DNA of 64,000 nucleotides from Candidatus Poseidoniaceae archaeon (GCA_049438185.1 JBMTJI010000006.1:10859-74858), one strand, 5' to 3'. Positions 7,862 through 59,815 are shown, numbered from the stretch's first letter. The notes: a model not told the origin generated them from the letters alone. Made by a program: numbers and translations.

Positions 7862-9391
7862 TCAACTCGAACAAGAAAGCATCGAGCATCCAACACGATG
7901 TCGTGCCCATTCAGGTCGTTTCTGGAACCATTGTTCCTCATGTTCCATTTGTTCCTTGTATGGCTTCTTGAGTAATTCGTATAGTGATTCAGCAATCGAA
8001 TAATCCCCTTTCTCTGCTGCATCGATAGCAAGTTGTGCCATCCAGTTACGGAGGACAAACTTTGGATTTGAAGCGAGCATTGCTTCTCGATTTGGTTGAC
8101 CGTTTGTTCGATCCCACCATTTTTGCAACCACTGATTCCATTCATCACGTGGAATGGTTGTTGGATCATAAAATGCAAACGCGAGGTGTTCGATGACTGG
8201 TTCTTCAAGCGTTGAGAGTAATCTGAAGAAAATAGTCATGTCCGTTTCGACCAACTGAAGGTTTGCGGTGAGTTCCTTAACAAGAAGTTCATCACCTTCC
8301 AAGAATTCATCGAAACCAAGTTTCCTCGACCACATGCTATTGTTTGCGCCCTCATATGCGCTGTAATAAGCGTCAAGACATTCGTACAATCGCTCCGGCT
8401 CTTCCATAAGAGGGGAAATCGATTCCAACAAACGAGCGAAATTCCAGGCACCTATCTGTGCCTGTTGGCCAAATCTGTACCTTCCTGTTCGTGCGTCAGT
8501 TGTATTTGGAGTCCAATTTGGATTAAAATCTTCAATCCAACCGTACGGACCATAATCGATGGTCAACCCATGGATGGACATGTTGTCGGTGTTCATGACA
8601 CCATGGACAAATCCGACCCGCATCCATTCCGATATCATGTGGGCGGTTTCTTCACCAACGTGCTTCAACCAATTCACCAAACCTTCATCACTGGTGGTCG
8701 TGTGATTTGGGAAGTGTTGTTTGACTGAAAAATCTACCAAGGTTCGCAGCGTGCTGACATCACCATTCATTGAATGGATTTGGTAGGAACCAAAACGAAG
8801 AAAACTCGGAGCGATTCGACAGACGATGGCTCCTTGTTCCGGAGCAGGATTCCCATCGTACATGACATCTCGAACCACATCCTCTCCAGTTGTGACAAGC
8901 GAGAGTGCCCGCGTGGTTGGGATTCCAAGATGATGCATTGCTTCGCTGCACAAAAACTCACGAATCGAGGATCGCAGTACAGCTTTGCCATCTGCAAATC
9001 GCGAGTATGGTGTTATCCCCGGTCCTTTCAATTGCAACTCAAGACGTTGCTTTCCAGTGTCCACCTCTCCTAATGTAATTGCACGTCCATCTCCAAGTTG
9101 ATTGGCCCAATTACCGAATTGATGTCCACCATACCGTTGTGCATAAGGATCCATTCCTTCAACGATTCGATTCCCGCCAAGAATGTCCGATGCATCAGGA
9201 TTGACGTTCAATTCCGTCGCCATCTCTTTGGACCACAGACGAAGAACTGGATCTGGAACCTGAGTAGGTTGAACACGAGACCAACATGCATGAGGAACTT
9301 GCCTTGGCTTTCCACCAATTTCTTGATCGCCAGGTGTACCCTGCAAAAAGTGATTGAACCACTTCAGTTCCGTAAACGAATCGGTTCCCAC
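7862..9391 (-). CDS. selO: Protein adenylyltransferase SelO (YdiU/UPF0061 family)
   Basis: YGGHQFGNWANQLGDGRAITLGEV...LKGPGITPYSRFADGKAVLRSSIREFLCSEAMHHLGIPTTRALSLV is the hallmark SelO/YdiU core. 509 aa. Confidence 0.75.
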   Translation of the reverse strand: MGTDSFTELKWFNHFLQGTPGDQEIGGKPRQVPHACWSRVQPTQVPDPVLRLWSKEMATELNVNPDASDILGGNRIVEGMDPYAQRYGGHQFGNWANQLGDGRAITLGEVDTGKQRLELQLKGPGITPYSRFADGKAVLRSSIREFLCSEAMHHLGIPTTRALSLVTTGEDVVRDVMYDGNPAPEQGAIVCRIAPSFLRFGSYQIHSMNGDVSTLRTLVDFSVKQHFPNHTTTSDEGLVNWLKHVGEETAHMISEWMRVGFVHGVMNTDNMSIHGLTIDYGPYGWIEDFNPNWTPNTTDARTGRYRFGQQAQIGAWNFARLLESISPLMEEPERLYECLDAYYSAYEGANNSMWSRKLGFDEFLEGDELLVKELTANLQLVETDMTIFFRLLSTLEEPVIEHLAFAFYDPTTIPRDEWNQWLQKWWDRTNGQPNREAMLASNPKFVLRNWMAQLAIDAAEKGDYSIAESLYELLKKPYKEQMEHEEQWFQKRPEWARHRVGCSMLSCSS

Positions 9392-9426: not shown

Positions 9427-11589
9427 TCAAATCCTAGTTGTTTGATTCTTTCTGAATACAACCAGCATGGCTAGGGTCATGACAACGATTGTTGACAACA
9501 CCCCAACCCCTGGAGTCGATTCACTCTCTTGTTTTGTTTGATGCTCTTCAATAGGGACGGTTTTGACCGCTTCTGTATAGACCCCATCCAAACACGTACC
9601 GTCACCAACGATTAATTCCGATTGATTAGAGGATAACACAACGGCCGTACTCGGATCGGAATTCAAATCCTCTTTCTCGTATAATGTAGTCTCAATGGAA
9701 TAACATCCACGGTTCATAGACAGCATCAAATCGTATTGTTCACCACTCGATTGAATGTCTTCCCACCACCATATTCCATTCCATTCACCACTACTGATGT
9801 TCTTGGCAACGATAATGGCAGTGTAGACCGTACCTTGGGCAAGATCCTTCACTTCGGATTGGTACGCATACGTCCATGATGCATCCAAATCATCAGGTGT
9901 GTTTGTAGGGCGGAGATGGTTCAATTGAATCTCTTCATCAACGTCGATAACAGGCGGATTGTATTCTCTCCATAACCAAACCATGTTGCTTTCATGGCGA
10001 CGAGTGTCCTCTCCAACGAGGACACTACCATCATCAAGGACAACGAGATTATCTGGTCCAGCAAGGTTGTTCATGTCACATTGGTATTGATTTGAGGAGA
10101 TGTATGGTCCTCCGATGATGGCGGGGTGAATCCTGTTAACATTCCACAATTCGTTCATCGTCATCTGGTAGACGATCCCGCAAAGGTTGTCTGAAACATC
10201 GATATCACCTTGTCCGTCGGTCATTGCATTGTCGATACTGGACATGGCGAGGTAAAGATTGTCCGGAGCGTTTTGATTAAAACCGACCCCTTCCATTTTG
10301 TTCCACTCATCAGTAGCTCCTATTGCTGCAGCCGCTTTACGGGTTTCAAGGAAAGCTACACGGTCATCCAAGGCATAACCAATGGTCCCATCGTTGTTCA
10401 AATCTTGATTTAGATAATCCTCTGCCCAATTGTTGATTTCTTCATCGGTAATGTACGAGTTTTCTCCTTGAATATAATCAGCAGTTGTTATGCCGTCATA
10501 ATCATCAATCCAACCTTGGATTTCATCGTTTGATGAAGATCCAAGTTCCAGCCATTCGACGTCAAACCCAGTTGAAGCAGAATTGTATGTGGAATCTTGT
10601 GTAACTTTTGCAGAATAAAGCGTACCTTCACTCAAATCACCTGCTGTATCTGCCTCGAATTTGAAGAAGACCGTTTCATAGCCATCATCGGTCAGATAGA
10701 CCGTCTTGTTATCGGGCATGACCAAAGCATTCTCATGTGAAAAACGACCCATAGTAAGGTGTCGTATCAGTTCAGGCGTTGTCGATGTTGCCTGTTCCAT
10801 CTCGATGATGTAACCATAATCGTATGGATTTGGATAATGCCCAAGATACTGCTCAAGGCGTAGTTGGTCTGAGTGATATCGATATCCATCGTTGTTCCAA
10901 TCCTCTGTATCATCAAAGTACAATTCTTCAGAGAACAATGGGGTACTCCAAGGGCTGACACTTCCAAAACAAAGAACCCAAGCTCCATTGATGTCTGAAA
11001 GATTCAACATTTGCTTTGAGAGAACATCCCATTCGCTTGATGATGGATTCCATTCGAGTTCGACTTGGCTGATACCCGCTGGACGATCCTCCCACGCAGT
11101 GTAGAGATATCCGGTGGTTCCATCGGAATTCGTTGGAATAAATGCATTGTAATCGGGTTTTTGACTCAACAAAATCTGTTGGCCGTCGTGTGCTGAGTAA
11201 ATTCCTCCAGCGATTGTACCGTCATCCATTGAATCTCCTGCTTGCAGGAGAACCTGGTAGTCGCCATAACCGGTTCGAATACCATGCCAAATGTCTGAGG
11301 CACTGCTCGATGATGAAAGCGAGGGAACTTCTTCAGGAAGGTTATTCCAGTCCACACCATTGATCACGCCAATTGTGGCATCATAATTGTCCGGATCAGG
11401 ATGCATTGCGTTCACAAAGAAGCGCCCGTTTTCATCGACATACATACCGGTTGCTTCTGCTTCAGGAGGGAGCATAACGATACGAATCATCTGATCTTCC
11501 TCTTCACTTTCTGCGACAACAAGGGGTGAAGAGAACAAACAGACCATCATGCCGACACAAAACAAGGTGAGTAGAGGTCGCATTCGCAT
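9427..11589 (-). CDS. Secreted PhoX-like (COG3211/DUF839) putative phosphatase with C-terminal TM anchor
   Basis: N-terminal signal peptide (MRMRPLLTLFCVGMMVCLFSSPLVVAES). Beta-propeller-like repeats. AGPDNLVVLDDGSVLVGEDT resembles the PhoX C-terminal motif. The extreme C-terminus is ESESTPGVGVLSTIVVMTLAMLVVFRKNQTTRI (sorting-signal-like). Confidence 0.45.
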   Translation of the reverse strand: MRMRPLLTLFCVGMMVCLFSSPLVVAESEEEDQMIRIVMLPPEAEATGMYVDENGRFFVNAMHPDPDNYDATIGVINGVDWNNLPEEVPSLSSSSSASDIWHGIRTGYGDYQVLLQAGDSMDDGTIAGGIYSAHDGQQILLSQKPDYNAFIPTNSDGTTGYLYTAWEDRPAGISQVELEWNPSSSEWDVLSKQMLNLSDINGAWVLCFGSVSPWSTPLFSEELYFDDTEDWNNDGYRYHSDQLRLEQYLGHYPNPYDYGYIIEMEQATSTTPELIRHLTMGRFSHENALVMPDNKTVYLTDDGYETVFFKFEADTAGDLSEGTLYSAKVTQDSTYNSASTGFDVEWLELGSSSNDEIQGWIDDYDGITTADYIQGENSYITDEEINNWAEDYLNQDLNNDGTIGYALDDRVAFLETRKAAAAIGATDEWNKMEGVGFNQNAPDNLYLAMSSIDNAMTDGQGDIDVSDNLCGIVYQMTMNELWNVNRIHPAIIGGPYISSNQYQCDMNNLAGPDNLVVLDDGSVLVGEDTRRHESNMVWLWREYNPPVIDVDEEIQLNHLRPTNTPDDLDASWTYAYQSEVKDLAQGTVYTAIIVAKNISSGEWNGIWWWEDIQSSGEQYDLMLSMNRGCYSIETTLYEKEDLNSDPSTAVVLSSNQSELIVGDGTCLDGVYTEAVKTVPIEEHQTKQESESTPGVGVLSTIVVMTLAMLVVFRKNQTTRI

Positions 11590-13087: not shown

Positions 13088-14113
13088 TCAGCGAGATGCA
13101 AGGGTAAGGTTCTTCCACATGTCTTCTGGAACTTCCATAGCCAAGCGAAGACCACCCATTGCACCGAGTCGAACAGGGTCATCAACAACGTGAACGTTAA
13201 CATCGCCCATATCAGAGAGTCGACGCTCGATAAGTGCTCCAAGTCCACGGATACCGGATCCGCCACCAGCGAGAACCATGTTTCGTCGGAACTGGTCGTG
13301 GTACTCTGGGTTGGAGTCTGCAATAAGCTGCTTCACATTCTCAACGATTGGATCAACAATCGACTCACAAGCTCGCTGAATGCAATCCGTGATATCGAGA
13401 TTCATTGCCTTACCTTCAATCGAGAAGTCAACCATAACTGGGTCATCCGGAGTGGATGTGGAGACGAAGGAGTACTGTTCCTTCCATCGTCGAGCCATGT
13501 CTTTGGTGATTTGAGCACCGTTGTACTTGGATTGAACTTCTTTGATGATTTGAGCATCAACATAGTCACCAGCGTATCCAGTGTGCATTTGGTCACCTGG
13601 ACCAGGGATTGTACCGTAAACACGGCAAAGATCCGTAGTTCCTGCACCGATGTCGATGACCAGTGTGTGCTCGATCATGTCAAGAGCGTAAGCAACAGCA
13701 AACGGCTCAGAGATAATCATAGCAGCATTAACGCTTCCTGCAGCGGCATCGAAGATAGCGGTCTTGTCGACGTGGCTGGCTTCTGCAGGTGCGCCGATAA
13801 CGGCGACAACACGGTCGTGTTCTTCTGGGTCTGCTAGACCAATCAGGTGGGTAATGAAGTGAGCGATGAATTGGCGGTCTTCAACAGTATCCTTGATGAC
13901 ACCGAGTTCGAGAGGACGGAAAAGGTTCAGTGCTAGCCTGTTCTTCAACGCATCCTCGCCGAAGAGAACATCTCGCTTGAGGAAGTTACGAGCAATTGGA
14001 TCCTTTGGAGTACCAATCACAGTGAGCTCTTCTTCTTCGTGGTTCCCTGAGGAGACCATTACCGAACGAAACGTTCCCAAATCAATTCCAATATACAATA
14101 CATCTTCTGCCAT
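13088..14113 (-). CDS. Actin-fold ATPase, MreB/Ta0583-like archaeal actin homologue
   Basis: Phosphate-1 YIGIDLGT, phosphate-2 LVIDIGAGTTD, adenosine motif MVLAGGGSGIRGL. 341 aa. Not eukaryote-like (Asgard-type) actin. Confidence 0.7.
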   Translation of the reverse strand: MAEDVLYIGIDLGTFRSVMVSSGNHEEEELTVIGTPKDPIARNFLKRDVLFGEDALKNRLALNLFRPLELGVIKDTVEDRQFIAHFITHLIGLADPEEHDRVVAVIGAPAEASHVDKTAIFDAAAGSVNAAMIISEPFAVAYALDMIEHTLVIDIGAGTTDLCRVYGTIPGPGDQMHTGYAGDYVDAQIIKEVQSKYNGAQITKDMARRWKEQYSFVSTSTPDDPVMVDFSIEGKAMNLDITDCIQRACESIVDPIVENVKQLIADSNPEYHDQFRRNMVLAGGGSGIRGLGALIERRLSDMGDVNVHVVDDPVRLGAMGGLRLAMEVPEDMWKNLTLASR

Positions 14114-14221: not shown

Positions 14222-15238
14222 TTAAAGCCAACTTTCACAAGGTTGACAATACCAAGCCGAGTACTCAGGATAGAGTTCTGCCATCTGGTTGCAATTTGGA
14301 CATTCCTTGAGTGCATTACCCCCGAAGATTTCCTGAACGAGCGCAACATGCTGTTCTTCAGTGACCCCCAATTGTTGGCGCATAACCCACATCATCTGAT
14401 CTTCGCTTGGCGAAATGATACCATCTTCGAGAACCAGAGCGATGACGTTGCGGTAATCATCCAACACATTCACATCTCGGAAGTCGAGTATAACACCACC
14501 CTTCTCTGCGACAATATCTTGGCCGCCTGGATCGTCAACAAACAGAACAAGCGATTCGGGTTTCAACTTATCATCTCGTAATTCGAACGAAATTCGATTT
14601 CCTTCGAGATTGGCATAGACAAGTCGCGATGAGCGGTTGATGACACTGGTAATCGAGCGTGCCGTATCTTCGCTATTGCGACCGCGTTTCCATCCTGTCG
14701 GGCTTCGCTCATTGTAGGCATAGAACTCGGTACCAATACCTGGATATTCAAGACGAATTTCTTCACCACCATCGAAACCATTTGAGACAATGGTCAGTGC
14801 AGCAACTTCGGTTGAAACGAGGTTATCGTCGTCATCAAAACTAATCATGAGTGGCTTTCGATCTTCAGAAGCTGCGTTGAAATGTCCTTGCATCCCACTC
14901 ATCCACTTATCTTCCAATCGCTTGAGTGATTGTTCTTGTTCTTCGGAAAGGTTTGAATTAACTCCTAAGACGCCTTTGAGGTCGCCACGTTCCATTTCTG
15001 CCTTGAATTCTTGAATTAATTCAGAATCACGTCGATGGTTTGGAGGAGGGCCTCTGACCTTTCGAGAAACATGGGATGGATCCGCCCACTCGTAAGAACA
15101 ACGGCTGCAAGAAAGATAACCTTCCATTGTGGACGGCTGACTTTCTCCACCGCATCGAGCGCAATCTCCTTCTTCTTTGATCGAAAGATTGTCAGCCGCC
15201 TCTTTCCTTCCTTTCCGAATGCCACCAAACCCAGCCAT
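14222..15238 (-). CDS. Hypothetical protein with N- and C-terminal zinc ribbons
   Basis: CARCGG...CSRCSYEW near the N-terminus and CPNCNQMAELYPEYSAWYCQPCESWL at the C-terminus. Acidic central domain. Same strand as, and immediately upstream of, the actin homologue. Confidence 0.5.
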   Translation of the reverse strand: MAGFGGIRKGRKEAADNLSIKEEGDCARCGGESQPSTMEGYLSCSRCSYEWADPSHVSRKVRGPPPNHRRDSELIQEFKAEMERGDLKGVLGVNSNLSEEQEQSLKRLEDKWMSGMQGHFNAASEDRKPLMISFDDDDNLVSTEVAALTIVSNGFDGGEEIRLEYPGIGTEFYAYNERSPTGWKRGRNSEDTARSITSVINRSSRLVYANLEGNRISFELRDDKLKPESLVLFVDDPGGQDIVAEKGGVILDFRDVNVLDDYRNVIALVLEDGIISPSEDQMMWVMRQQLGVTEEQHVALVQEIFGGNALKECPNCNQMAELYPEYSAWYCQPCESWL

Positions 15239-37076: not shown

Positions 37077-37541
37077 TCATGAACCTTGCTCAGTGGCATT
37101 TGGGTTCATTTCTTCGCGTGTTGCTTCATCGGTTGTCATGGCATAACGAACCAAAATCATTGCAAAGGCAGTCGATGTAAGGAAGGCAACGCCGACGAAA
37201 ATCGAAAGGTTGTACCACAACATGGCTACCCCAACCAAGGAAACATAGGCGAACATTTGGCAAATGTTCGAAGCAATCGTTAGTTTCTTTACCATGTGAT
37301 GGCTTAATCTCCCGTTGTTTTCCAACATGAAGGTGTAGATCAGAAAATAAATCGCTTGGAATGGAAGCGTTGCAGCAATGATGGTCAAGGCTACTTCGCG
37401 GATTTGTGTCGGGTTTGCCTCTTGCTCCATCCCCTGGAAAAGCATCACTGCGGTATTTGTTCCGAGCAATGCGGCCATAATTGTCCAGCGTTTGTCTTGT
37501 GATGAGGTTCTGCTCTCAACATTGACAGATCCATCACTCAT
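37077..37541 (-). CDS. Membrane protein (hypothetical, ~4 TM)
   Basis: Hydrophobic helices. Start chosen at MSDGSVN. A further small upstream membrane ORF (37627..37893, minus strand) is possible. Confidence 0.3.
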   Translation of the reverse strand: MSDGSVNVESRTSSQDKRWTIMAALLGTNTAVMLFQGMEQEANPTQIREVALTIIAATLPFQAIYFLIYTFMLENNGRLSHHMVKKLTIASNICQMFAYVSLVGVAMLWYNLSIFVGVAFLTSTAFAMILVRYAMTTDEATREEMNPNATEQGS

Positions 37542-37917
37542 GAGCAAGACCTTGCAAAAACGGGTTTGAATATATCGCTTCTTGCACGGATTTGAAGGTA
37601 GTTTTGATGGTTTCCTCAAAACTCCATCAAAGGGATTCAAGCAGTTTGATGGCTGCACCTGTAATGGTTGCAACGATGAAGAGCAGTATCATCATACCAA
37701 TTGGTCCATACTGATTTGCATCATTGATCGAGGTGTTGAAGAAACCGTCCCGTGTTATGGCTTGACCAAAACTTTCAGCTTCTTCGTAAGGAGGGGGGTC
37801 TCTCCGAGGAATCCGTTCTCCCTTCCGTACTTCTCCCGCCATGTTGATACCATCCGGAGAGAGGTCAAGAGCATTTTGTATGAACGCAATCAAATCCTAA
37901 GACTCCCACGATGGAAT

Positions 37918-38505
37918 ATGGCGGAGCGATGGTCGATGGACATGAGTGGAAAACGTATTCATCTCTCGGTCGAAGGTGGATGTGGAGGAACTACGTTTGG
38001 TCTTCATTGTGCAGTCAATGAGATTCAATCAGGACGACGCGTCTTGTGGGCTTCACCCGAGATGCCAAATGCTACACGTTTCTCTCAACTCTTTTCATCA
38101 TTAAATATCGTAGAATCGAGTCGATTTCACGCCCTCAATCTCATCGGAGCTATGGATCGCTGCGTGGATGCTATCGTTGAAGCTGAACGTAGTTTGCCAA
38201 GGGTTGGTTTGGTTGTCCTCGATGACTGGTGTGCTCCAACCGGTCGAATTGAGAAAGAGAATATCGATGCCGTTCTCGATCTTGCAAAGCGAATGAAGCA
38301 AGAGACAACACTCCTGCTCATTTCGAAGTCAGGTACAGATGTTACAGGGGCTGAAGAAGCATACAGACCACGTTCAAAATCTGATTTCAAAGAAAACGGA
38401 TTTGAAATCTGGGGATTGTATTCCAATCCGAAGAAGACAATTCAGCTTGACATTTCAGGACTTATCATCGAAGGAAAAATCGAGGAATCAGGCTTCGTCT
38501 TCTGA
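37918..38505 (+). CDS. RecA/KaiC-like fold protein with degenerate Walker A (no lysine)
   Basis: SVEGGCGGTTFGL in the P-loop position, LVVLDD Walker-B-like, ~195 aa. Start placed at MAERW. The upstream part of the six-frame ORF overlaps an opposite-strand gene. Confidence 0.3.
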   Translation: MAERWSMDMSGKRIHLSVEGGCGGTTFGLHCAVNEIQSGRRVLWASPEMPNATRFSQLFSSLNIVESSRFHALNLIGAMDRCVDAIVEAERSLPRVGLVVLDDWCAPTGRIEKENIDAVLDLAKRMKQETTLLLISKSGTDVTGAEEAYRPRSKSDFKENGFEIWGLYSNPKKTIQLDISGLIIEGKIEESGFVF

Positions 38506-38754
38506 ATCTTCGCCCAGAAGTTTGGCCATTTCTTCAAGGGCTTCCTCATCAGGCTCATCAAAGCGTTGGGGATGTCGAGCACCACCTTCCAACGTATCTT
38601 CACCAGCAACTTTTGGTGCATGATTCTTCAACATCTCTTCTCGATTCTTTCGTGCTCGCATGGCAACAAAAATCATCATTCCAAGGAAGGCTAGAATGAG
38701 AATTACGGTAGTGATGGTCTTGGTGCTGTCTTCTGCCATGGATGCCTCTTGCAT
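38488..38754 (-). CDS. Small single-pass membrane protein with acidic tail (hypothetical)
   Basis: 88 aa. ITTVILILAFLGMMIFVAM helix then a charged tail. Confidence 0.3.
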   Translation of the reverse strand: MQEASMAEDSTKTITTVILILAFLGMMIFVAMRARKNREEMLKNHAPKVAGEDTLEGGARHPQRFDEPDEEALEEMAKLLGEDSEDEA

Positions 38755-39964: not shown

Positions 39965-40579
39965 CTACCACCTCATGGGATCGTAATCATCACCCTGATC
40001 GCTGTCATCCAGAACTCGCTCAATCACTTGTGGCAAGCCCAATTGATCGGATACCTCGAATGTTCTCGCACCCACTGCCCAGCCAGCCCCCATATCGGAT
40101 TTACGATCACCAATCATGGCATCGAGTTGGTGCCACGGTTTTGGTTTTGCACCCGCCCAATGAATCCTTCCGTTGGTTCTTCGCTCATTCCGAAGGAGAT
40201 TGTTCCCCTTGACCAACATTCCTGGCCATGGCTTACGACAACCGCAACGATCTCTGTTTCTATGTGGGCAGGTTATGATGACATCAATTACCGCATCCGG
40301 GTGTTCATCGAGAAGTTGTTCACGCAATGCTGCGTGAATGGCATGCAGTCGCTCAACAGACCACAGTTTCCGCATAATGGGTGACTGATTTGTGACAACA
40401 CAAATGGAATATCCTTTCGAACGTAATTGCGCAATCGCTTTTCCACTACCTGGGATAATCTGCAGCTCATGTGGATGATTGACGTAGCCATTTCGCCCAT
40501 AATTGAGAACACCATCACGATCGATGAAAGCGATTGGCCCTTTGGCCAAACCAGAACCATCGACAATGGGTCCATCCAT
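39965..40579 (-). CDS. HAD-IIIA phosphatase, GmhB/histidinol-phosphatase-like
   Basis: FIDRDGVLN motif I, VVTNQS motif II, Zn-site-like CPHRNRDRCGCRKPWPGM, GDRKSDM motif III/IV. Confidence 0.7.
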   Translation of the reverse strand: MDGPIVDGSGLAKGPIAFIDRDGVLNYGRNGYVNHPHELQIIPGSGKAIAQLRSKGYSICVVTNQSPIMRKLWSVERLHAIHAALREQLLDEHPDAVIDVIITCPHRNRDRCGCRKPWPGMLVKGNNLLRNERRTNGRIHWAGAKPKPWHQLDAMIGDRKSDMGAGWAVGARTFEVSDQLGLPQVIERVLDDSDQGDDYDPMRW

Positions 40580-40652: not shown

Positions 40653-41579
40653 ATGTTCCTTTCCAAAGAGGTTGCCACCATCGCAGGCGCTCTTGGAATG
40701 GTTTTTCTCGCCATATCATGGCACAGACGGCACAATGAAGGTGTTTCACGCCTCGCTCAATGTGGTTGGATTTTGGTCGGCCTGTATTTCTTCAACGACT
40801 CCTTATATTATTTCGAACTTGAGGATCTTGTACTTACCATCATGACGGCGCTAGCACTGCCGATTTCGGTAGCATTGGTGATTGCAGAAGCTCGATCGTT
40901 GACGGAACGTGATCGAGCAGCCCTCAATTGGGCACGTGGATGCGTTGCCTATGCAGGAGGCCCCTACCTTCTTGTCGCTCACATTCCATGGCTCTCTGTT
41001 TTGGCGATTTGGTTCGTTGCTTCTCAAGTCGCTATGTTCCTGTCCTTCACCGGGACAGTGGATATCAAACTCGGTGAAACGTATGTCAATACATCTGAAG
41101 GTCGCTTTTTGTGGGACGATTGGGATGGCAACAAGTGGTTCATGACCGACGGTTTTGCAGAACACCCGTTCCAAACAGAATTGATCATGGCCGATGGTGG
41201 ATTCATTGGCATTAATTTCGTATTAGCTTGTACTGCGCTTCAATCGATGATCGTATTTATTGGAGCGATTTCAGTCCTTGATGTCGATCGAAAGCGCCGC
41301 ATTCGAGCCCTGCTCTTCACGGTACCAATCATTCACATTCTCAATCTGTTCCGAAATGCAGGGCTTGTATGGATGCATCTCTCTTACGAAGGATGGGAAT
41401 ACCTTGGTTTGAGCATGTTCGAATTTGGACATTCTTATGCTGCACGAGTCGTCTCGCTCTTTGCCATGTTTGTGATGGCGATTGCGATGTTCGAGTTACT
41501 TCCTGAGTTGCATCGACACATCCTTCGATTGATGGATGCATCTGGACTTCGTAAGAAAAAGACGAAGATTAGTCCTTAA
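40653..41579 (+). CDS. Archaeosortase/exosortase-family membrane protein (candidate archaeosortase)
   Basis: 308 aa polytopic. Cys193 in VLACTALQS (cf. exosortase CSGxRS). Arg234 in NLFRN is 41 residues downstream, the same spacing as H. volcanii ArtA Cys173/Arg214. A third Arg is at 265. Confidence 0.55.
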   Translation: MFLSKEVATIAGALGMVFLAISWHRRHNEGVSRLAQCGWILVGLYFFNDSLYYFELEDLVLTIMTALALPISVALVIAEARSLTERDRAALNWARGCVAYAGGPYLLVAHIPWLSVLAIWFVASQVAMFLSFTGTVDIKLGETYVNTSEGRFLWDDWDGNKWFMTDGFAEHPFQTELIMADGGFIGINFVLACTALQSMIVFIGAISVLDVDRKRRIRALLFTVPIIHILNLFRNAGLVWMHLSYEGWEYLGLSMFEFGHSYAARVVSLFAMFVMAIAMFELLPELHRHILRLMDASGLRKKKTKISP

Positions 41580-44500
41580 TCCAAGGTGAATCAGGATCGT
41601 CACGATGCCATAGTCGTCCACTGTTCGGTGGATATTCAATGTGCTCTCGACCCTTTGAATCCATCATTCCCATCAAACTCGCTGCTGGCTGGTCATGTTC
41701 GGGTTGAGACTCAAAATTATCCCCGCCAAAGTCGTAGATGGGTATATTGGTTGTTTGGCCAGATGGGGCAACTTCGTTCACGATGATTGATTGCAGTGCC
41801 TGACGTCCGGTGGATGATGCTTCTGCAAGGTTGTCACCCATATTCAACATCTGTTCTGAGAAAGCATCTGTTTTGTTCCATTCTTGATCCAAGTTTTGGC
41901 GAGAACCGCCTCCGCCACGGGCAAAGAGAACCAAGAGCCCGATGAGGACGATGAGCATAGCCCCTCCAGCACCATAGAGCATGTCATTGGCAACGCTTGG
42001 TGCAAAGTCAGCATTGTCGCCGATTCCGTCACCATCTGCGTCTTTTGACTCATTGGGATCGTTGGGGAATTGATCATCAACATTTGGCACACCATCACCA
42101 TCTGTATCGAATGGATTGAAGGTGGTCTTACAGTTTTCAATCGCTTCCTCAAGTTCATCTTGTGTGATGTAGTCGTCGCCGTTTTCGTCCAAGAACTTCA
42201 AATCGTAGGTATTTCTCAAATCCAACGATTCAAAGAATTCCGTCGAAGTCTTATACGGAAGTTGCTCCATCATCGAATTGAGTTCGTTCTCGCACGTGCA
42301 CGAGAATGCAACAACTTCAGTGAATTCAATCATACCATCGCCATTCACATCAACATCGGCAAATTCGATATCATTTGGTGGATCTGACCGCCTAAACTCA
42401 TCCGCATTCATCAATCCATTGCCGTTGATATCAACCTCTTCGAAAAACTCTTCGAGATTATAATCGCATGCATAGATATCTTCGGGTTCAGGTTCAGGAT
42501 CTGGGTCTGGCCCTGGACGGTCGTTTGTTTTCCAATAGGCAACAATGGAGACATCTGAGAAATCATCTTGTGCAACGACTGTAATGTCAAAACGACCCGC
42601 TGCAGGTGAATAGATGTACAATTCTTGGTAGGTACCTTCTCCATATGATGTGAACTCTTCTTCGAAGATGTCCTCATCCATAAAGTCATCAAAACCTTCG
42701 AACTCATCAAAGCCGAAGAAATCGCCATAGTCCACCTCGCCATCAGCAGTGATGTACAGTGAACCGTCTCCACCAAATGTTGTGATGATCAGTTCTTCTG
42801 CGCGAGACTCGAGATCGACATAGAAATAGAGTTCTTCTCCGGCAGGAGCACTGAGTCCGTCGACGTCTTCATCATTGAACAACTCAATCGGTGTACCATC
42901 GTATTCCCAAATGTAGAGGTCTTCGAAGGATGCTGTGATCGACACTCCACTGAACACACTTTCAGAGTCGAGGAGAATGTGCCACTTGCCTGGAGTTGGG
43001 TTGTTGAATCCAATCTTGTCTCCTGCACCTGGAGCTCCTGAATGATGATCTGCTTCGCTTGCCGTAGGTGTGTTTTCATAGCGCATGTGGAGCGTTGCCT
43101 CACCGAATCCTCCGTCGAGGTCAACTTCAAGTCGCTCTGTTCCAGTTGGAACGTCGATGAAGAAATATTGGTCAAGACCATCGTAACCGCTCATTGGCCC
43201 ATATGCAACACCTGGTTGTAATTCGATAGCAGTTGATGGATCTGCATTGTCTGGTGCATACGTGAAATCAGCGACGATTGTGAAATCAGAAGCCTTTCGA
43301 TAGGTGAAGGCTGTGATGTAGTATATTCCAGGTTCGACATCAAACAAATTAACCTCTTCACCATTACCATCGTTGGTTGACCAAGCAATGTTGCTTTGCT
43401 GATATTCTGCTACGGAATATTCATCAAAATATGGTTCCCCGTAATAGTAGTAGTAATTCGGGTCAATCGGCCCTCCTGAGGAGAGAATAAGGTCGATGTT
43501 TCCTTTTCCTCCATACGTTTCAATCTTCAATTCTGTGAGTGAATCGGTAACATTAACGTAATAGTATTCCAAGGCCGCATCCCAGCTATCACGACCGGAT
43601 TCGACGGTTTGGGATGTGATGGGGACACCATTGAACAACTGGGTCATTTCATCAAGACTTGGTGGCTCTTCGGCAACTTCCCAAGAGGCGATGATTTCCA
43701 ATTCCTCGATGTCTTGCTTGGCAACGATGGAGTACCACATAATATTGTGTTCTGGCCATGTCCATGAGTTGAAGACTGAACCCCAATAACTGGTCAACTC
43801 CATGTCGTAATCCCAAGGCGCTGGTATGCGATCGTAACCAACATATGCGTCGAAGAGCATGTTCTCTTCGTAATCATAATCCCAATCGTCGTAAAATATT
43901 TCAGACCAAGAATAAATAGCAATGTCGGTCATGAATGTGTAGTCGTCGAGTTCTGCATAGAAGAGGAGGGTGTCGCCTTCCTGGATGTTTTCCAATACAA
44001 GGAATTCATCGTTGGGTAGTTCTACCGCTTGCGCGACGATCGAACCATCAGGCATGACCCAATCGGCACCGTGAATGGTACCAATACGATCCATTGTAGC
44101 ATCGTTCAATGCATCCCCTGTGTCCCCACCTTCACCTTCCCAGAACGTCCATCGACTGACAGGCTCCCACATGTTCTGTTCAACAAATGAGATGGTAAGG
44201 TCATCGATGATGCCTTCGAAATGATAGCAGTCGCAACCAGCACCCATTCGAGCGATGTACAATTCATCGCATGCGTCGCCTGAGGTGAAACAGTCATTGG
44301 AGCCAAAATCCCCTTCAGGAATGTTGGCATCCTCGGCAGAAATGTTCCCTGCAGGAACACCATCAATGGTGAAAAATCCTCCAACTCCTTCGATGAGTTG
44401 AACACCGATGGTATGCCAGGTGCCTTCAGTAATGCTCATGTTGGATGTCGGATGCTTGGAAAGACTGTATTCGGATGCGTATCCAATGGCGCCATTAGAG

Positions 44501-45195
44501 AGATACATGCCCCATCCATAATCCCCTTTCATGGTAATAAATCGAATACCATCAAGACTGCTTGCTTTGATGGTCGCTTCGATGTTCAGCGTTCCATTTG
44601 CGATCAAACCCTCGTCATGGTCGATGACGATGTGGTCTTCAATACCATCAAATCTGAGAGAGAAATCTGCACCGGGTCCAACTTCAACAACACCGTAGAC
44701 GGGGAAGTATTCTGGATTGTTTTCCAAATCGTTCCATGTTTGAGGATCAATGTTGCCCATGTTGGTTGAAGCGATGTGTACATAGTCAGAATCATCTCCT
44801 CCTGTTGGTTGGTCGACACCCCAATTGCGGTACAAGAATGGCGTGCCATCGTGCCATCGGTAAATGCCTTCGTCTTGAACATCGTTCAATCCAATCCACA
44901 AATGCCGACTTTGATTGTCAAAACTGGCAAAGGTGTCGAATACCCAAGTGTTCTCTTCAGAATCGTCGATGGTCGTTAGATAACCATCGAGAGAACGCGC
45001 CTTGAACGCAGCATCTTCCCAAGACGATGCGGAGAGAAGGTGGTACGTCTTGTTGTTATCGGGATTGACTGCTGTATGCAAGATATCGATTTCATCGAGT
45101 TCACTTGAATTTGCTTGAACCATTGCGACCATGCATGTTGAGGCGAGCATCATCAGAATCAGTGTTGTAGCAACGAACGGAGAGCCTTGGGCCAT
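41569..45195 (-). CDS. Giant multidomain cell-surface protein: signal peptide, Cys-less C-type-lectin-like domain, LamG/ConA-like, 3x PPC (pre-peptidase C-terminal)-like domains, TSP3/EF-hand/dockerin-like Ca-binding repeats, TM helix and ~115-aa cytoplasmic tail
   Basis: 1208 aa. CTLD pattern WIGLNDVQDEGIYRWHDGTPFLYRNWGVDQP...WNDL. PPC-like YYVNVTD...GKGNIDLIL and QYFFIDVP...LHMRY. DVNGDGMIEF (EF-hand/dockerin). DTDGDGVPNVDDQFPNDPNESKDADGDGIGDNAD (TSP3-like). TM LIVLIGLLVLF. Confidence 0.8.
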   Translation of the reverse strand: MAQGSPFVATTLILMMLASTCMVAMVQANSSELDEIDILHTAVNPDNNKTYHLLSASSWEDAAFKARSLDGYLTTIDDSEENTWVFDTFASFDNQSRHLWIGLNDVQDEGIYRWHDGTPFLYRNWGVDQPTGGDDSDYVHIASTNMGNIDPQTWNDLENNPEYFPVYGVVEVGPGADFSLRFDGIEDHIVIDHDEGLIANGTLNIEATIKASSLDGIRFITMKGDYGWGMYLSNGAIGYASEYSLSKHPTSNMSITEGTWHTIGVQLIEGVGGFFTIDGVPAGNISAEDANIPEGDFGSNDCFTSGDACDELYIARMGAGCDCYHFEGIIDDLTISFVEQNMWEPVSRWTFWEGEGGDTGDALNDATMDRIGTIHGADWVMPDGSIVAQAVELPNDEFLVLENIQEGDTLLFYAELDDYTFMTDIAIYSWSEIFYDDWDYDYEENMLFDAYVGYDRIPAPWDYDMELTSYWGSVFNSWTWPEHNIMWYSIVAKQDIEELEIIASWEVAEEPPSLDEMTQLFNGVPITSQTVESGRDSWDAALEYYYVNVTDSLTELKIETYGGKGNIDLILSSGGPIDPNYYYYYGEPYFDEYSVAEYQQSNIAWSTNDGNGEEVNLFDVEPGIYYITAFTYRKASDFTIVADFTYAPDNADPSTAIELQPGVAYGPMSGYDGLDQYFFIDVPTGTERLEVDLDGGFGEATLHMRYENTPTASEADHHSGAPGAGDKIGFNNPTPGKWHILLDSESVFSGVSITASFEDLYIWEYDGTPIELFNDEDVDGLSAPAGEELYFYVDLESRAEELIITTFGGDGSLYITADGEVDYGDFFGFDEFEGFDDFMDEDIFEEEFTSYGEGTYQELYIYSPAAGRFDITVVAQDDFSDVSIVAYWKTNDRPGPDPDPEPEPEDIYACDYNLEEFFEEVDINGNGLMNADEFRRSDPPNDIEFADVDVNGDGMIEFTEVVAFSCTCENELNSMMEQLPYKTSTEFFESLDLRNTYDLKFLDENGDDYITQDELEEAIENCKTTFNPFDTDGDGVPNVDDQFPNDPNESKDADGDGIGDNADFAPSVANDMLYGAGGAMLIVLIGLLVLFARGGGGSRQNLDQEWNKTDAFSEQMLNMGDNLAEASSTGRQALQSIIVNEVAPSGQTTNIPIYDFGGDNFESQPEHDQPAASLMGMMDSKGREHIEYPPNSGRLWHRDDPDSPWIKD

Positions 45196-57344: not shown

Positions 57345-58928
57345 TCAACTGTAAACTGGGAACTTGCCACCACCATAACTGACGGGTCCCTCTAATGCAA
57401 AGACTCGATCTCGCTGAACGCGTTCGAAATCGTTGTCTTTGTCGGAATAGGCGAGTGGTCGGTAGTAGGCGTTAATGTAGGTGCCATCCCTATTTGGATC
57501 CGGTTGTTCAATCCAATCGATGAGTGCGGATGCAGTATGCAGTAGCCACTTGTTGTTCGTTACATCAACAGATGCCTCGATGTAGCAACTATCCAATTCG
57601 ATGTTGTTCTCATTGCACCATTCCGTTGACATTGGTAGTTGGATATAGCCCCATGCGTGAGCTTCCCATTTTGTGTACGATTGACTTGAAAGAATGCCAA
57701 AGACATACCATCCAGGAATGCCCTTGGCTCGAAGCAAACTCAAGAATGCGTTCGTCTGTTCGTCACAGTCCCCTTGGCCTGCAGCAAGACAAGCAGGTCC
57801 GCTTAATGCGGGTGAGCCTGAGCCAGGGTCGGTGTAATACTCGATGTTTTCTCGAATGTAATCAAAAGCTGCCTTGGCAAACTTGAATGCGTTCTGATTG
57901 TTTTCTGGAAGATTTGAATCAATAGCTGATACAGCAGCAATAACGGTTGCACCAGTCGCATCAATAGCGTAATCAGGTCGATTTTTGTCGTACCATCGTA
58001 TGGCTGTGAAATCGTCAACTCGTTCACCAGATCCACGGTTTTCAAAATCATCAAACGTACCACTGTTCTGCTCAAGTATGCCGGATGCGAAACCAGGAAT
58101 TCGAGGATCAACGCCCTCATCTGCATCAGACCACCACGTATACGACTTCGAACTAATGGTCACAAGATACTCAAACGATGTAGCTTGGTTTGGACCAAGA
58201 TTGATGGTCACCTTGACACAAGGGCCGCCAATACAGTACTGGCTTCCAGTCCCCGATGTCCCAGGCCACCATACTTTGTGCCCACTCGCAGTTGTAATGG
58301 CTTCAGCATAGGTTCGTATTGCAGAGTTTTCAAGTGGAATATTGATCGACTGGCCATCGATTCGCAACTCAATCGATGTAACGTCCTGAATTTTCTGATT
58401 CGGGACATCTTGTGTGCCATCGGTATAGGTATACATCGAATTGCTATCCTCAAGGGCGTAAATGTCCGGTGAAATTGGCAATGTCTCGTTAAAGTACTCG
58501 CTCATGTCACTGTCCATATTCTCAAATGAAACGATTCGATTAAGGGTGTAATCTGCTTCGATGTCATACACCAAATAACCTGACGTTGGATTCATGATGA
58601 ATTCTTTAACTTCTGAAATTTTACCCATGGTCATTTCTCTCGCTTGTGGTGAAAGCATGATGAATGCGACGAGTCCGAGCATGATGAGGCTGCGAAAACG
58701 ATTCTTTCGACCCTTGAGGATATTCTTTGTTCTTCCACGATCGGTTTGGACAAGTCCTCTTCGCTGTGGTGTCGTGGTCATCTTGTACGCAGAAACGTGG
58801 TTGTGACGGTCTTTTTGCAGGTGGATTCGATGTTCCATAATCGAACTGTTGGCTAAAACCCTCCCACAGGAGTAGCAGATGGTATCACCATCCAGCGTCG
58901 TCGCAGCACAGTACGGGCAAGAACCCAT
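57345..58928 (-). CDS. Transglutaminase-like cysteine-protease-fold protein with N-terminal zinc ribbon and signal-anchor
   Basis: N-terminal CPYCAATTLDGDTICYSCG. TM (LIMLGLVAFIMLS). TGase core GDCDEQTNAFLSLLRAKGIPGWYVFG and WEAHAWGYIQL (Cys-His). Confidence 0.55.
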   Translation of the reverse strand: MGSCPYCAATTLDGDTICYSCGRVLANSSIMEHRIHLQKDRHNHVSAYKMTTTPQRRGLVQTDRGRTKNILKGRKNRFRSLIMLGLVAFIMLSPQAREMTMGKISEVKEFIMNPTSGYLVYDIEADYTLNRIVSFENMDSDMSEYFNETLPISPDIYALEDSNSMYTYTDGTQDVPNQKIQDVTSIELRIDGQSINIPLENSAIRTYAEAITTASGHKVWWPGTSGTGSQYCIGGPCVKVTINLGPNQATSFEYLVTISSKSYTWWSDADEGVDPRIPGFASGILEQNSGTFDDFENRGSGERVDDFTAIRWYDKNRPDYAIDATGATVIAAVSAIDSNLPENNQNAFKFAKAAFDYIRENIEYYTDPGSGSPALSGPACLAAGQGDCDEQTNAFLSLLRAKGIPGWYVFGILSSQSYTKWEAHAWGYIQLPMSTEWCNENNIELDSCYIEASVDVTNNKWLLHTASALIDWIEQPDPNRDGTYINAYYRPLAYSDKDNDFERVQRDRVFALEGPVSYGGGKFPVYS

Positions 58929-59014: not shown

Positions 59015-59815
59015 TCACTCCTCTTCTGCTTGAATTGAGTTTGGCTGTTGAAGAAGTCTCGCAGCGACCTGTTTTTCCCGCTTTTTATCCGCTTGCATTC
59101 TTCGCCATCGTCGACGACCTTCTTTGGGTACTGAATCCCAAACCCATTTCTCTGCTGAATCCTGAACCAGCAGGATTGGTGGAATGATGAAAACCCAAGC
59201 CAGTGGGCTAAACCAAGCGAAATAGAACATTGTGAGCGAAGATGCTCTCCAGAATGTAGCTCTGAAAATAGCACCCCATCGCTTTCCTCTCAACATGAGC
59301 GTTCCATGAAATGCCGTGATGATGGCTTCAACTCGTGGTGCGAAAAACCCGATGAGCAATACTGTTAGGACATCCTGCAATCCATCGATCCCAGTCTGAA
59401 CTTTTCTCGTGATCAAAACGATGGCGAGCATCCCTCCAACTGCAAGACCGAGCGCCCATCCACTGGTTGCTTGTGAGCCGCCTTTTCGAACACGTTTTCG
59501 ACGAAGCAAAAAATGCATACCAATCGTTGCAATTAGAGGGATGAGAATCAGGCGAACGAGATTTAATTCCGCTGTTCGAGTCCCTGTCACTTGAGCCTCG
59601 TAATAGGGCAGAAACAGTGAGCTATCTGCATACGAAGCAAACGCCCCTCCGAGAAGGATTCCCCAAAACACCTGATTCCATGCAGTTGGCAAGTCATAGA
59701 ATCCAGAATATTTTGTCATCACTCCGCGCCAGCCCAACGTCATACCGATGAGGCCACATATTGCGGCAATCTGGAACGTGACAAAATCATTGACCACAAC
59801 ATATCCTGATAACAC
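59015..59815 (-). CDS. Polytopic membrane protein (hypothetical) with basic/acidic C-terminal tail
   Basis: 266 aa, ~7 hydrophobic segments, RRRWRRMQADKKREK tail. Confidence 0.4.
   Translation of the reverse strand: MLSGYVVVNDFVTFQIAAICGLIGMTLGWRGVMTKYSGFYDLPTAWNQVFWGILLGGAFASYADSSLFLPYYEAQVTGTRTAELNLVRLILIPLIATIGMHFLLRRKRVRKGGSQATSGWALGLAVGGMLAIVLITRKVQTGIDGLQDVLTVLLIGFFAPRVEAIITAFHGTLMLRGKRWGAIFRATFWRASSLTMFYFAWFSPLAWVFIIPPILLVQDSAEKWVWDSVPKEGRRRWRRMQADKKREKQVAARLLQQPNSIQAEEE

Follow-up and report, generated by a model that had tools for sequence, protein, structure and literature searches.

The 64,000-nucleotide stretch of DNA considered here (hereafter the window), from a Candidatus Poseidoniaceae archaeon (GCA_049438185.1 JBMTJI010000006.1:10859-74858), carries in its second half an open reading frame (ORF) for a polytopic membrane protein of 308 amino acids (aa), and we put the probability at about 0.88 that this gene is the ordinary archaeosortase A (ArtA) orthologue of a Marine Group II archaeon, with a member of its PGF-CTERM client family encoded nearby. 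Archaea of Marine Group II rank with the most abundant in the plankton, and the archaeosortase A family was described in 2012 and has been studied experimentally in Haloferax. The gene, called artA below, is already correctly named in public databases and in that respect offers little that is new. The likely client, a secreted phosphatase of the PhoX family, has a C-terminal sorting signal in which the signature Phe of the PGF motif has been replaced by Val, and much of what follows concerns how this replacement and the large surface protein encoded next to artA are to be understood. An earlier note on this DNA, made from the sequence alone, had picked out the ORF, which is present as it was described, and had likened its product to the archaeosortases.

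Identity of the artA gene

The artA ORF begins with ATG, and its product matches the NCBIfam model for archaeosortase A (TIGR04125) with 98.4 bits (E 4.7e-28; curated cut-off 75) over residues 10-294 of the protein and positions 4-260 of the 271 in the model. It also matches the exosortase/archaeosortase signature model TIGR04178, with 51.6 bits (cut-off 23), and the archaeosortase call of the earlier note is thus confirmed by the family models and narrowed to the ArtA type. The GenBank protein MGA0331279.1, named 'MAG: archaeosortase A [Candidatus Poseidoniaceae archaeon]' (MAG, metagenome-assembled genome), has the same sequence; its cluster at 90% identity has 578 members. A search of a large protein database at E<=0.001 yielded 416 relatives. 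Many of these carry the name "archaeosortase A (PGF-CTERM-specific)", given by JGI, or "archaeosortase A", given by NCBI, and come from MAGs of Poseidoniales, Poseidoniaceae or Thermoplasmatota. When one genome per species was scanned, 359 genomes were found to encode an artA relative, and the best 80 of these all have loci of the Marine Group II (Poseidoniales) type. Identity to the window protein is 99% for the copy in JBMZIJ010000001.1 (isolate ME_XS_2301_4_bin25), 60% for that in CM001443.1, the original Marine Group II genome, and 21-36% for most of the ArtA clusters from outside the Poseidoniales.

Assignment to another archaeosortase subfamily or to the exosortases was considered and is ruled out by the subfamily scores, since the models for heimdallarchaeosortase, XrtH, XrtX, pacearchaeosortase, ArtB, XrtM, XrtF and ArtH gave 8.5-28.5 bits, far under their cut-offs of 80-200. 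Two of the best 80 loci are deposited under bacterial labels, CALDQY010000164.1 as 'uncultured Rhodobiaceae bacterium' and CAXQWT010000099.1 as 'Salipiger bermudensis'; both have the tiaS-HAD-artA-surface protein block of the Poseidoniales, with ArtA identities of 93-97%, and their labels probably reflect binning contamination of the deposited MAGs.

Conserved residues of ArtA

Conservation was examined in two sets of relatives, one of 87 representatives of 50%-identity clusters with lengths of 240-600 aa and one of 54 diverse, curated full-length sequences. The Cys of the motif VLACTALQS and the Arg exactly 41 residues downstream, to which the earlier note had drawn attention, correspond to Cys193 and Arg234 and prove to be invariants of the family. 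With the Cys conserved in 86 and the Arg in 87 of the 87 representatives, and with the spacing of 41 kept in most relatives, the pattern cannot be put down to chance. Two further residues, N231 (100% of the 87) and P284 (99%), are also invariant among the 54. The third Arg of that description fared less well as a catalytic candidate: it is present as Arg265, 31 residues past Arg234, in a column that is basic (Lys or Arg) in 96% of the 87 relatives and Arg in the Poseidoniales sequences, and that is not invariant among the 54, while the family's third near-invariant residue is a His that the description had omitted (His260, 95-100%), set five residues before the basic position in all relatives. 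Because His260 is invariant among the 54 and position 265 varies between Lys and Arg, it is His260 and not Arg265 that conservation marks as the family's third catalytic candidate.

These observations can be set beside what has been reported for other members of the superfamily. The triad suspected in exosortases and archaeosortases consists of Cys, Arg and His (Haft 2023, bioRxiv 10.1101/2023.06.07.544157). In the ArtA of Haloferax volcanii, Cys173, Arg214 and Arg253 are critical (PMC9263693) and Cys173 is regarded as the active-site residue (PMC7157517); given the conserved motif and the spacing of 41 residues, we infer that Cys193 is the counterpart of Cys173.

Predicted structure and topology of ArtA

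The model of ArtA computed with AlphaFold2 (AF2) from an alignment of 54 sequences has a predicted local distance difference test (pLDDT) score of 91.1 and a predicted template modelling (pTM) score of 0.85. Its helices span residues 5-24, 33-55, 59-81, 85-110, 112-133, 195-207, 213-244, 255-282 and 284-296, and a four-stranded sheet (strands 138-147, 150-153, 173-179 and 184-190) occupies the interval 138-190, directly before Cys193. Hydropathy indicates several membrane segments, and basic residues gather at 25-33, 81-95, 213-218 and the C-terminus. The AF2 helices, the hydropathy and the positive-inside rule together point to seven membrane helices and an extracytoplasmic sheet, in an arrangement in which Cys193, Arg234, His260 and Arg265 are predicted to lie within the last three helices, in the halves that point out of the cell. 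The loop that precedes Cys193 has 60 residues in the window protein, or about 20 more than the median among the 54 relatives (39.5; range 24-66). A conserved Trp-rich motif in this loop, W..W.GN[KR]W, is a lineage feature of Poseidoniales-type ArtA.

A PhoX-like phosphatase as candidate client

The sole candidate substrate of ArtA in the window is the PhoX-like protein, which is encoded about 30 kb from artA. Its N-terminus, MRMRPLLTLFCVGMMVCLFSSPLVVAESEE, looks like a signal peptide on inspection, and its C-terminus reads ...ESESTPGVGVLSTIVVMTLAMLVVFRKNQTTRI, with the motif, the hydrophobic helix and the basic cluster of a tripartite signal at the extreme end of the protein. This end had been described from the sequence as a PGF-CTERM-like signal with a PGV(G) motif, a description borne out by the search of NCBIfam, in which the best match of the tail is the PGF_CTERM model TIGR04126.

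The tails of the best 120 orthologues listed, which are 63-97% identical to the window copy, place the Val in context. A regular expression for PGF followed by a helix and basic residues matches 104 of them and about four more have truncated, extended or mis-parsed tails, which brings the number with PGFG to ~104-108; PGV occurs in 11 and SGF in one. All 11 PGV copies are 92-97% identical to the window protein, and PGF copies of 92-93% identity (e.g., ...ESESTPGFGVLSTIVAMTVAMMIALRKNRTTGI) are interspersed with them in the ranking. Val is encoded by GTT, which differs in one base from the Phe codon TTT, and changing the Val to Phe in silico raises the TIGR04126 score of the window tail by 6.3 bits, to 22.2. 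The cut-off of that model, 24.5, is passed by four of the seven orthologue tails that were scored (P0126, a PGF orthologue from a sister clade, 28.1; P0137, 24.6; P0207, 30.2; P0209, 30.9), and some orthologue tails with PGF fall under it, at 15.0 and 21.6 bits. Since PGV is limited to 11 copies that are at least 92% identical, PGF is found elsewhere and a single base separates the two, the window tail, as judged from these comparisons, is a PGF-CTERM in which F was recently exchanged for V within a single clade of species rank, and not a new signal.

JGI and NCBI name the orthologues 'PGF-CTERM protein' or 'alkaline phosphatase PhoX' (P0209 is a "PGF-CTERM protein" at JGI). The PGF tail of one orthologue, P0136, scores 26.6 bits on the Heimdall-CTERM model (cut-off 24) and 15.0 on PGF_CTERM; short C-terminal signal models cross-match in this way, and automatic annotation from the tail alone could therefore name the wrong sorting system. 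Directly downstream of the PhoX-like gene, on the same strand, is the gene for a SelO-family protein adenylyltransferase (7862..9391, minus strand; Pfam 369 bits).

Table 1. Positions of artA, its proposed functional residues, the candidate client and the genes flanking artA, counted from the first letter of the window
Feature	Position	Strand	Basis
artA, archaeosortase A, 308 aa; predicted seven-helix cysteine peptidase/transpeptidase	40653..41579	+	TIGR04125 and TIGR04178 matches; identical GenBank protein; AF2 model
Extracytoplasmic beta-sheet loop before Cys193 (predicted), ArtA residues ~134-192	41052..41228	+	AF2 strands; loop-length comparison
Cys193 codon, proposed catalytic nucleophile, in NFVLACTALQS (motif LACTALQS)	41229..41231	+	86/87 and 54/54 relatives
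Arg234 codon, in ILNLFRNAGLV (motif LNLFRN), 41 residues past Cys193	41352..41354	+	87/87 and 54/54 relatives
His260 codon, motif FGHSY, third near-invariant family residue	41430..41432	+	95% of 87 and 100% of 54 relatives
Arg265 codon, in HSYAARVVSLF, five residues past His260, basic position	41445..41447	+	K in 83%, R in 13% of 87 relatives
Secreted PhoX-family phosphatase, 720 aa, with N-terminal signal peptide and PGF-CTERM-type tail; sole candidate ArtA substrate in the window	9427..11589	-	Pfam PhoX (PF05787), 95 bits
Sorting tail of the PhoX-like protein: PGV(G), 17-residue hydrophobic helix, RKNQTTRI, stop; F-to-V variant of PGF-CTERM	9427..9513	-	TIGR04126; orthologue tails; codon
1208-aa surface protein, convergent with artA, not a predicted ArtA substrate	41569..45195	-	Pfam matches; orthologue tails; synteny
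HAD-IIIA phosphatase (GmhB/histidinol-phosphatase-like), divergent, 73 bp upstream of artA	39965..40579	-	TIGR01656, 99.7 bits; TIGR01662, 74.9 bits

The convergent surface protein and gene order around artA

The gene for the 1208-aa surface protein and the 3' end of artA have 11 bp in common. The protein consists of a signal peptide, a C-type lectin domain, two PPC domains, EF-hands, TSP3-like Asp-rich repeats, one membrane helix and a tail of about 130 aa, the domains being those given by Pfam, in which the TSP_3 match is weak (E 0.024). There is no PGF motif in the protein, and the remark in the earlier note that it does not end in a PGF-CTERM holds, about 130 residues lying beyond the membrane helix. 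Among 50 distinct orthologues the segment that abuts this helix, up to APSVAND..Y (GDNAD.APSVAND..Y), is nearly invariant, and the helix itself and the linker that follows it are variable. The tail (41569..41960, minus strand) ends in MGM..G.E.IEYP..SG..W.R....W, which is strongly conserved in the same orthologues and for which no family match was found. Strong conservation of this terminal motif argues that the tail is kept and used in the cytoplasm, and the pattern as a whole is that expected for a type I membrane protein whose cytoplasmic tail is functional, and not that of a cleaved sorting signal. As a candidate substrate of ArtA, the protein was rejected on account of this conserved cytoplasmic tail and the absence of PGF.

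The arrangement of these genes is widely shared among the related loci. The gene for the surface protein is convergent to artA in 58 of the 58 loci that have room for it, over ArtA identities of 59-99%; the HAD phosphatase gene is upstream of artA in 67 of 67, and tiaS and lhr stand beside the artA block in essentially every locus that reaches far enough. Because tiaS, the HAD phosphatase gene and lhr share in this conservation, and because convergent genes are not co-transcribed, the adjacency of artA and the surface-protein gene is to be attributed to general conservation of gene order and not to an operon.

Points against the assignment and alternative readings

Several results weigh against the view that artA is an ordinary ArtA with a PGF-CTERM client in the window. 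Pfam assigns the artA product to no family at E<=1, Exosortase_EpsH (PF09721) included; a sequence search against solved structures gave chance matches alone (E>0.3), and a Foldseek search of the ArtA model against the PDB gave nothing at E<=0.001. The PhoX-like tail has PGV in place of PGF, without the signature Phe, and its 15.9-16.3 bits on TIGR04126 are under the cut-off. Further substrates were sought with a regular expression for tripartite tails in the window and in 83 related loci (+/-10 kb around artA), 1.3 Mb in total; the PhoX-like tail was the only one found, with none in the ~1.25 Mb of artA flanks, and since the 83 loci represent one and the same syntenic block, the search carries no information on the remainder of the genome. 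Finally, in work by Abdul Halim from 2015, permuting the PGF motif reportedly blocked processing in H. volcanii, and if PGF is required to that degree the PGV copy might be a poor substrate or none at all.

This last consideration leads to a reading in which the enzyme is ArtA and the PGV-tailed copy of the PhoX-like protein is no longer processed, staying in the membrane by its C-terminal helix. Besides the reported importance of an intact PGF in H. volcanii, it has on its side the loss of the signature Phe, the score of 15.9 bits and the 6.3 bits regained when Phe is restored in silico. However, the Pro-Gly, the Gly past the motif, the 17-residue helix and the RK that follows it are all kept, Val is a conservative hydrophobic replacement, and the persistence of the PGV form in 11 distinct sequences of 92-97% identity indicates that the tail is not being degraded; nor is the TIGR04126 score decisive by itself, since some orthologue tails with PGF are also under the cut-off. 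We regard this reading as unlikely, though less so than those that follow. The proposal of the earlier note, by which a lineage-specific archaeosortase would have co-evolved with a new PGVG signal that replaces PGF, has not stood up and now seems to us barely credible. The only tripartite tail in the window is indeed PGVG and under the PGF-CTERM cut-off, the pre-Cys loop of Poseidoniales ArtA is about 20 residues longer than usual, and the window ArtA is merely 22-35% identical to most other ArtA clusters. Yet the ordinary ArtA model fits the enzyme, ~104-108 of the 120 listed PhoX-like orthologues have PGFG, and the 11 with PGV are all at least 92% identical, whereas PGF is found both in copies of 92-93% identity and in more distant Poseidoniales copies. 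The lineages that bear PGF have the same ArtA orthologue in the same gene order, and the step from PGF to PGV is a single base.

The neighbour of artA has also been weighed as a dedicated substrate or partner of the enzyme, recognised through a non-canonical internal signal in the manner of HVO_0405, an H. volcanii substrate of the twin-arginine translocation (Tat) pathway whose tripartite signal is not C-terminal (PMC9263693). The adjacent and convergent position of the two genes in all 58 loci, the near-invariance of GDNAD.APSVAND..Y at the membrane helix in the 50 orthologues, the basic residue after that helix and the ability of ArtA to process internal tripartite signals (PMC9263693) would all fit such a relationship. 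They are countered by the lack of PGF or any similar motif, by the membership of the invariant segment in the last TSP3-like calcium-binding repeat, by the ~130-aa tail, whose conserved terminal motif argues for retention in the cytoplasm, and by the inclusion of tiaS, the HAD phosphatase gene and lhr in a gene order that reflects general genome conservation and no operon, convergent genes not being co-transcribed; on these grounds the idea is highly improbable. We give equally slight credence to the more speculative proposal that ArtA acts on, or docks with, the 1208-aa protein by way of the internal, non-PGF segment APSVAND..Y, or, in a milder form, that the ArtA of the Poseidoniaceae naturally accepts PGV; were the milder form true, the third position of the signature would not be strictly Phe. 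The assignment of artA to the standard ArtA/PGF-CTERM system, with the PhoX-like protein as a client whose signal has recently changed at one position, is the one that we adopt below.

Comparison with known systems

We found no open-access papers on archaeosortases in Marine Group II, and the closest comparison is with the H. volcanii enzyme (HVO_0915; TIGR04125; MEROPS C106), which belongs to the same NCBIfam family. The two have in common the Cys-to-Arg spacing of 41, a polytopic build, a similar size (303 aa from a 912-bp gene, PMC7157517, versus 308 here) and a candidate substrate with a PGF-type motif, a helix and a basic tail. They differ in the spacing of the second pair of residues, which is 39 from Arg214 to Arg253 in H. 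volcanii and 31 from Arg234 to Arg265 in the window protein (a comparison of distances, not of directly aligned residues), and in the pre-Cys loop, which here exceeds the family median by about 20 residues; the H. volcanii system is known from experiment, whereas the window ArtA is known from sequence and model alone.

With the bacterial exosortases (XrtA/EpsH and PEP-CTERM; TIGR04178, PF09721) the window ArtA shares the core signature region, in which three helices bear Cys, Arg and His at their outer ends, but its scores are far under the Xrt cut-offs, it has no PF09721 match and the signal is of the PGF and not the PEP-CTERM type. ArtB with VPXXXP-CTERM, ArtH, the heimdallarchaeosortase with Heimdall-CTERM and the pacearchaeosortase are members of the same superfamily, and the Heimdall-CTERM and PGF-CTERM models cross-match on the PhoX-like orthologue tails; the window ArtA is nevertheless set apart from all four by the low enzyme-model scores given above. 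Sortase A and its LPXTG signal in Gram-positive bacteria are analogous, in that here too a cysteine transpeptidase takes off the C-terminal helix together with its basic tail and fixes the protein to the envelope, with the same residue set of Cys, Arg and His as in the archaeosortases (Haft 2023, bioRxiv 10.1101/2023.06.07.544157). The fold, membrane arrangement and signal of sortase A are unrelated to those of ArtA, and its acceptor is lipid II as opposed to an archaeal lipid.

Other genes in the window

An actin-fold protein (MreB_Mbl 95.7 bits; Salactin and Volactin families) and a 338-aa protein that has no family match and whose ends are Cys-rich and zinc-ribbon-like are encoded by adjoining genes at 13088..14113 and 14222..15238, both on the minus strand; the two may be an archaeal cytoskeleton pair of Marine Group II. 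On the same strand, 57345..58928 encodes a 527-aa protein in which an N-terminal zinc ribbon is combined with a transglutaminase-like core domain (51 bits), and the next gene downstream, 59015..59815 (minus strand), a 266-aa protein that begins with a hydrophobic stretch and has no family match. The region 37077..38754 was mechanically divided into overlapping ORFs of 198 aa (minus strand), 307 aa (plus strand, TTG start) and 88 aa (minus strand), of which the 307-aa ORF has weak RadB/KaiC-like matches. Relatives have four small genes there, of 147, 105, 197 and 81 aa and without Pfam matches, for which reason the 307-aa ORF is probably over-extended at its 5' end.

Proposed mechanism and biological meaning

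Family membership, residue conservation, the tripartite tail and the PGF motifs of the orthologues were observed directly in the sequences, and homology with the H. volcanii enzyme suggests how the system would operate. ArtA would recognise surface proteins, exported through Sec, that end in a PGF motif abutting a hydrophobic helix and followed by basic residues. By analogy, it would remove the C-terminal helix by way of a thioester formed at the catalytic Cys and pass the new C-terminus to an archaeal lipid, probably archaetidylethanolamine, with the result that the protein is tethered at the cell surface; a thioester/archaetidylethanolamine model of this kind has been put forward for ArtA (PMC7157517). 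Catalysis and lipid transfer, no less than topology, thus enter the scheme as inferred steps. No pssA/pssD-like lipid genes were found among the ~20 window proteins scanned. The likely client in the window would be the PhoX-family phosphatase, in whose tail the Phe has recently turned into Val.

It appears, then, that Marine Group II carries a standard ArtA/PGF-CTERM system of which a PhoX-type alkaline phosphatase is one likely client. If PhoX is a client of ArtA, phosphate would be scavenged in these archaea by an enzyme that is lipid-tethered to the cell surface, and the natural PGF-to-PGV variant offers a ready test of how strictly ArtA depends on the Phe of its signal.

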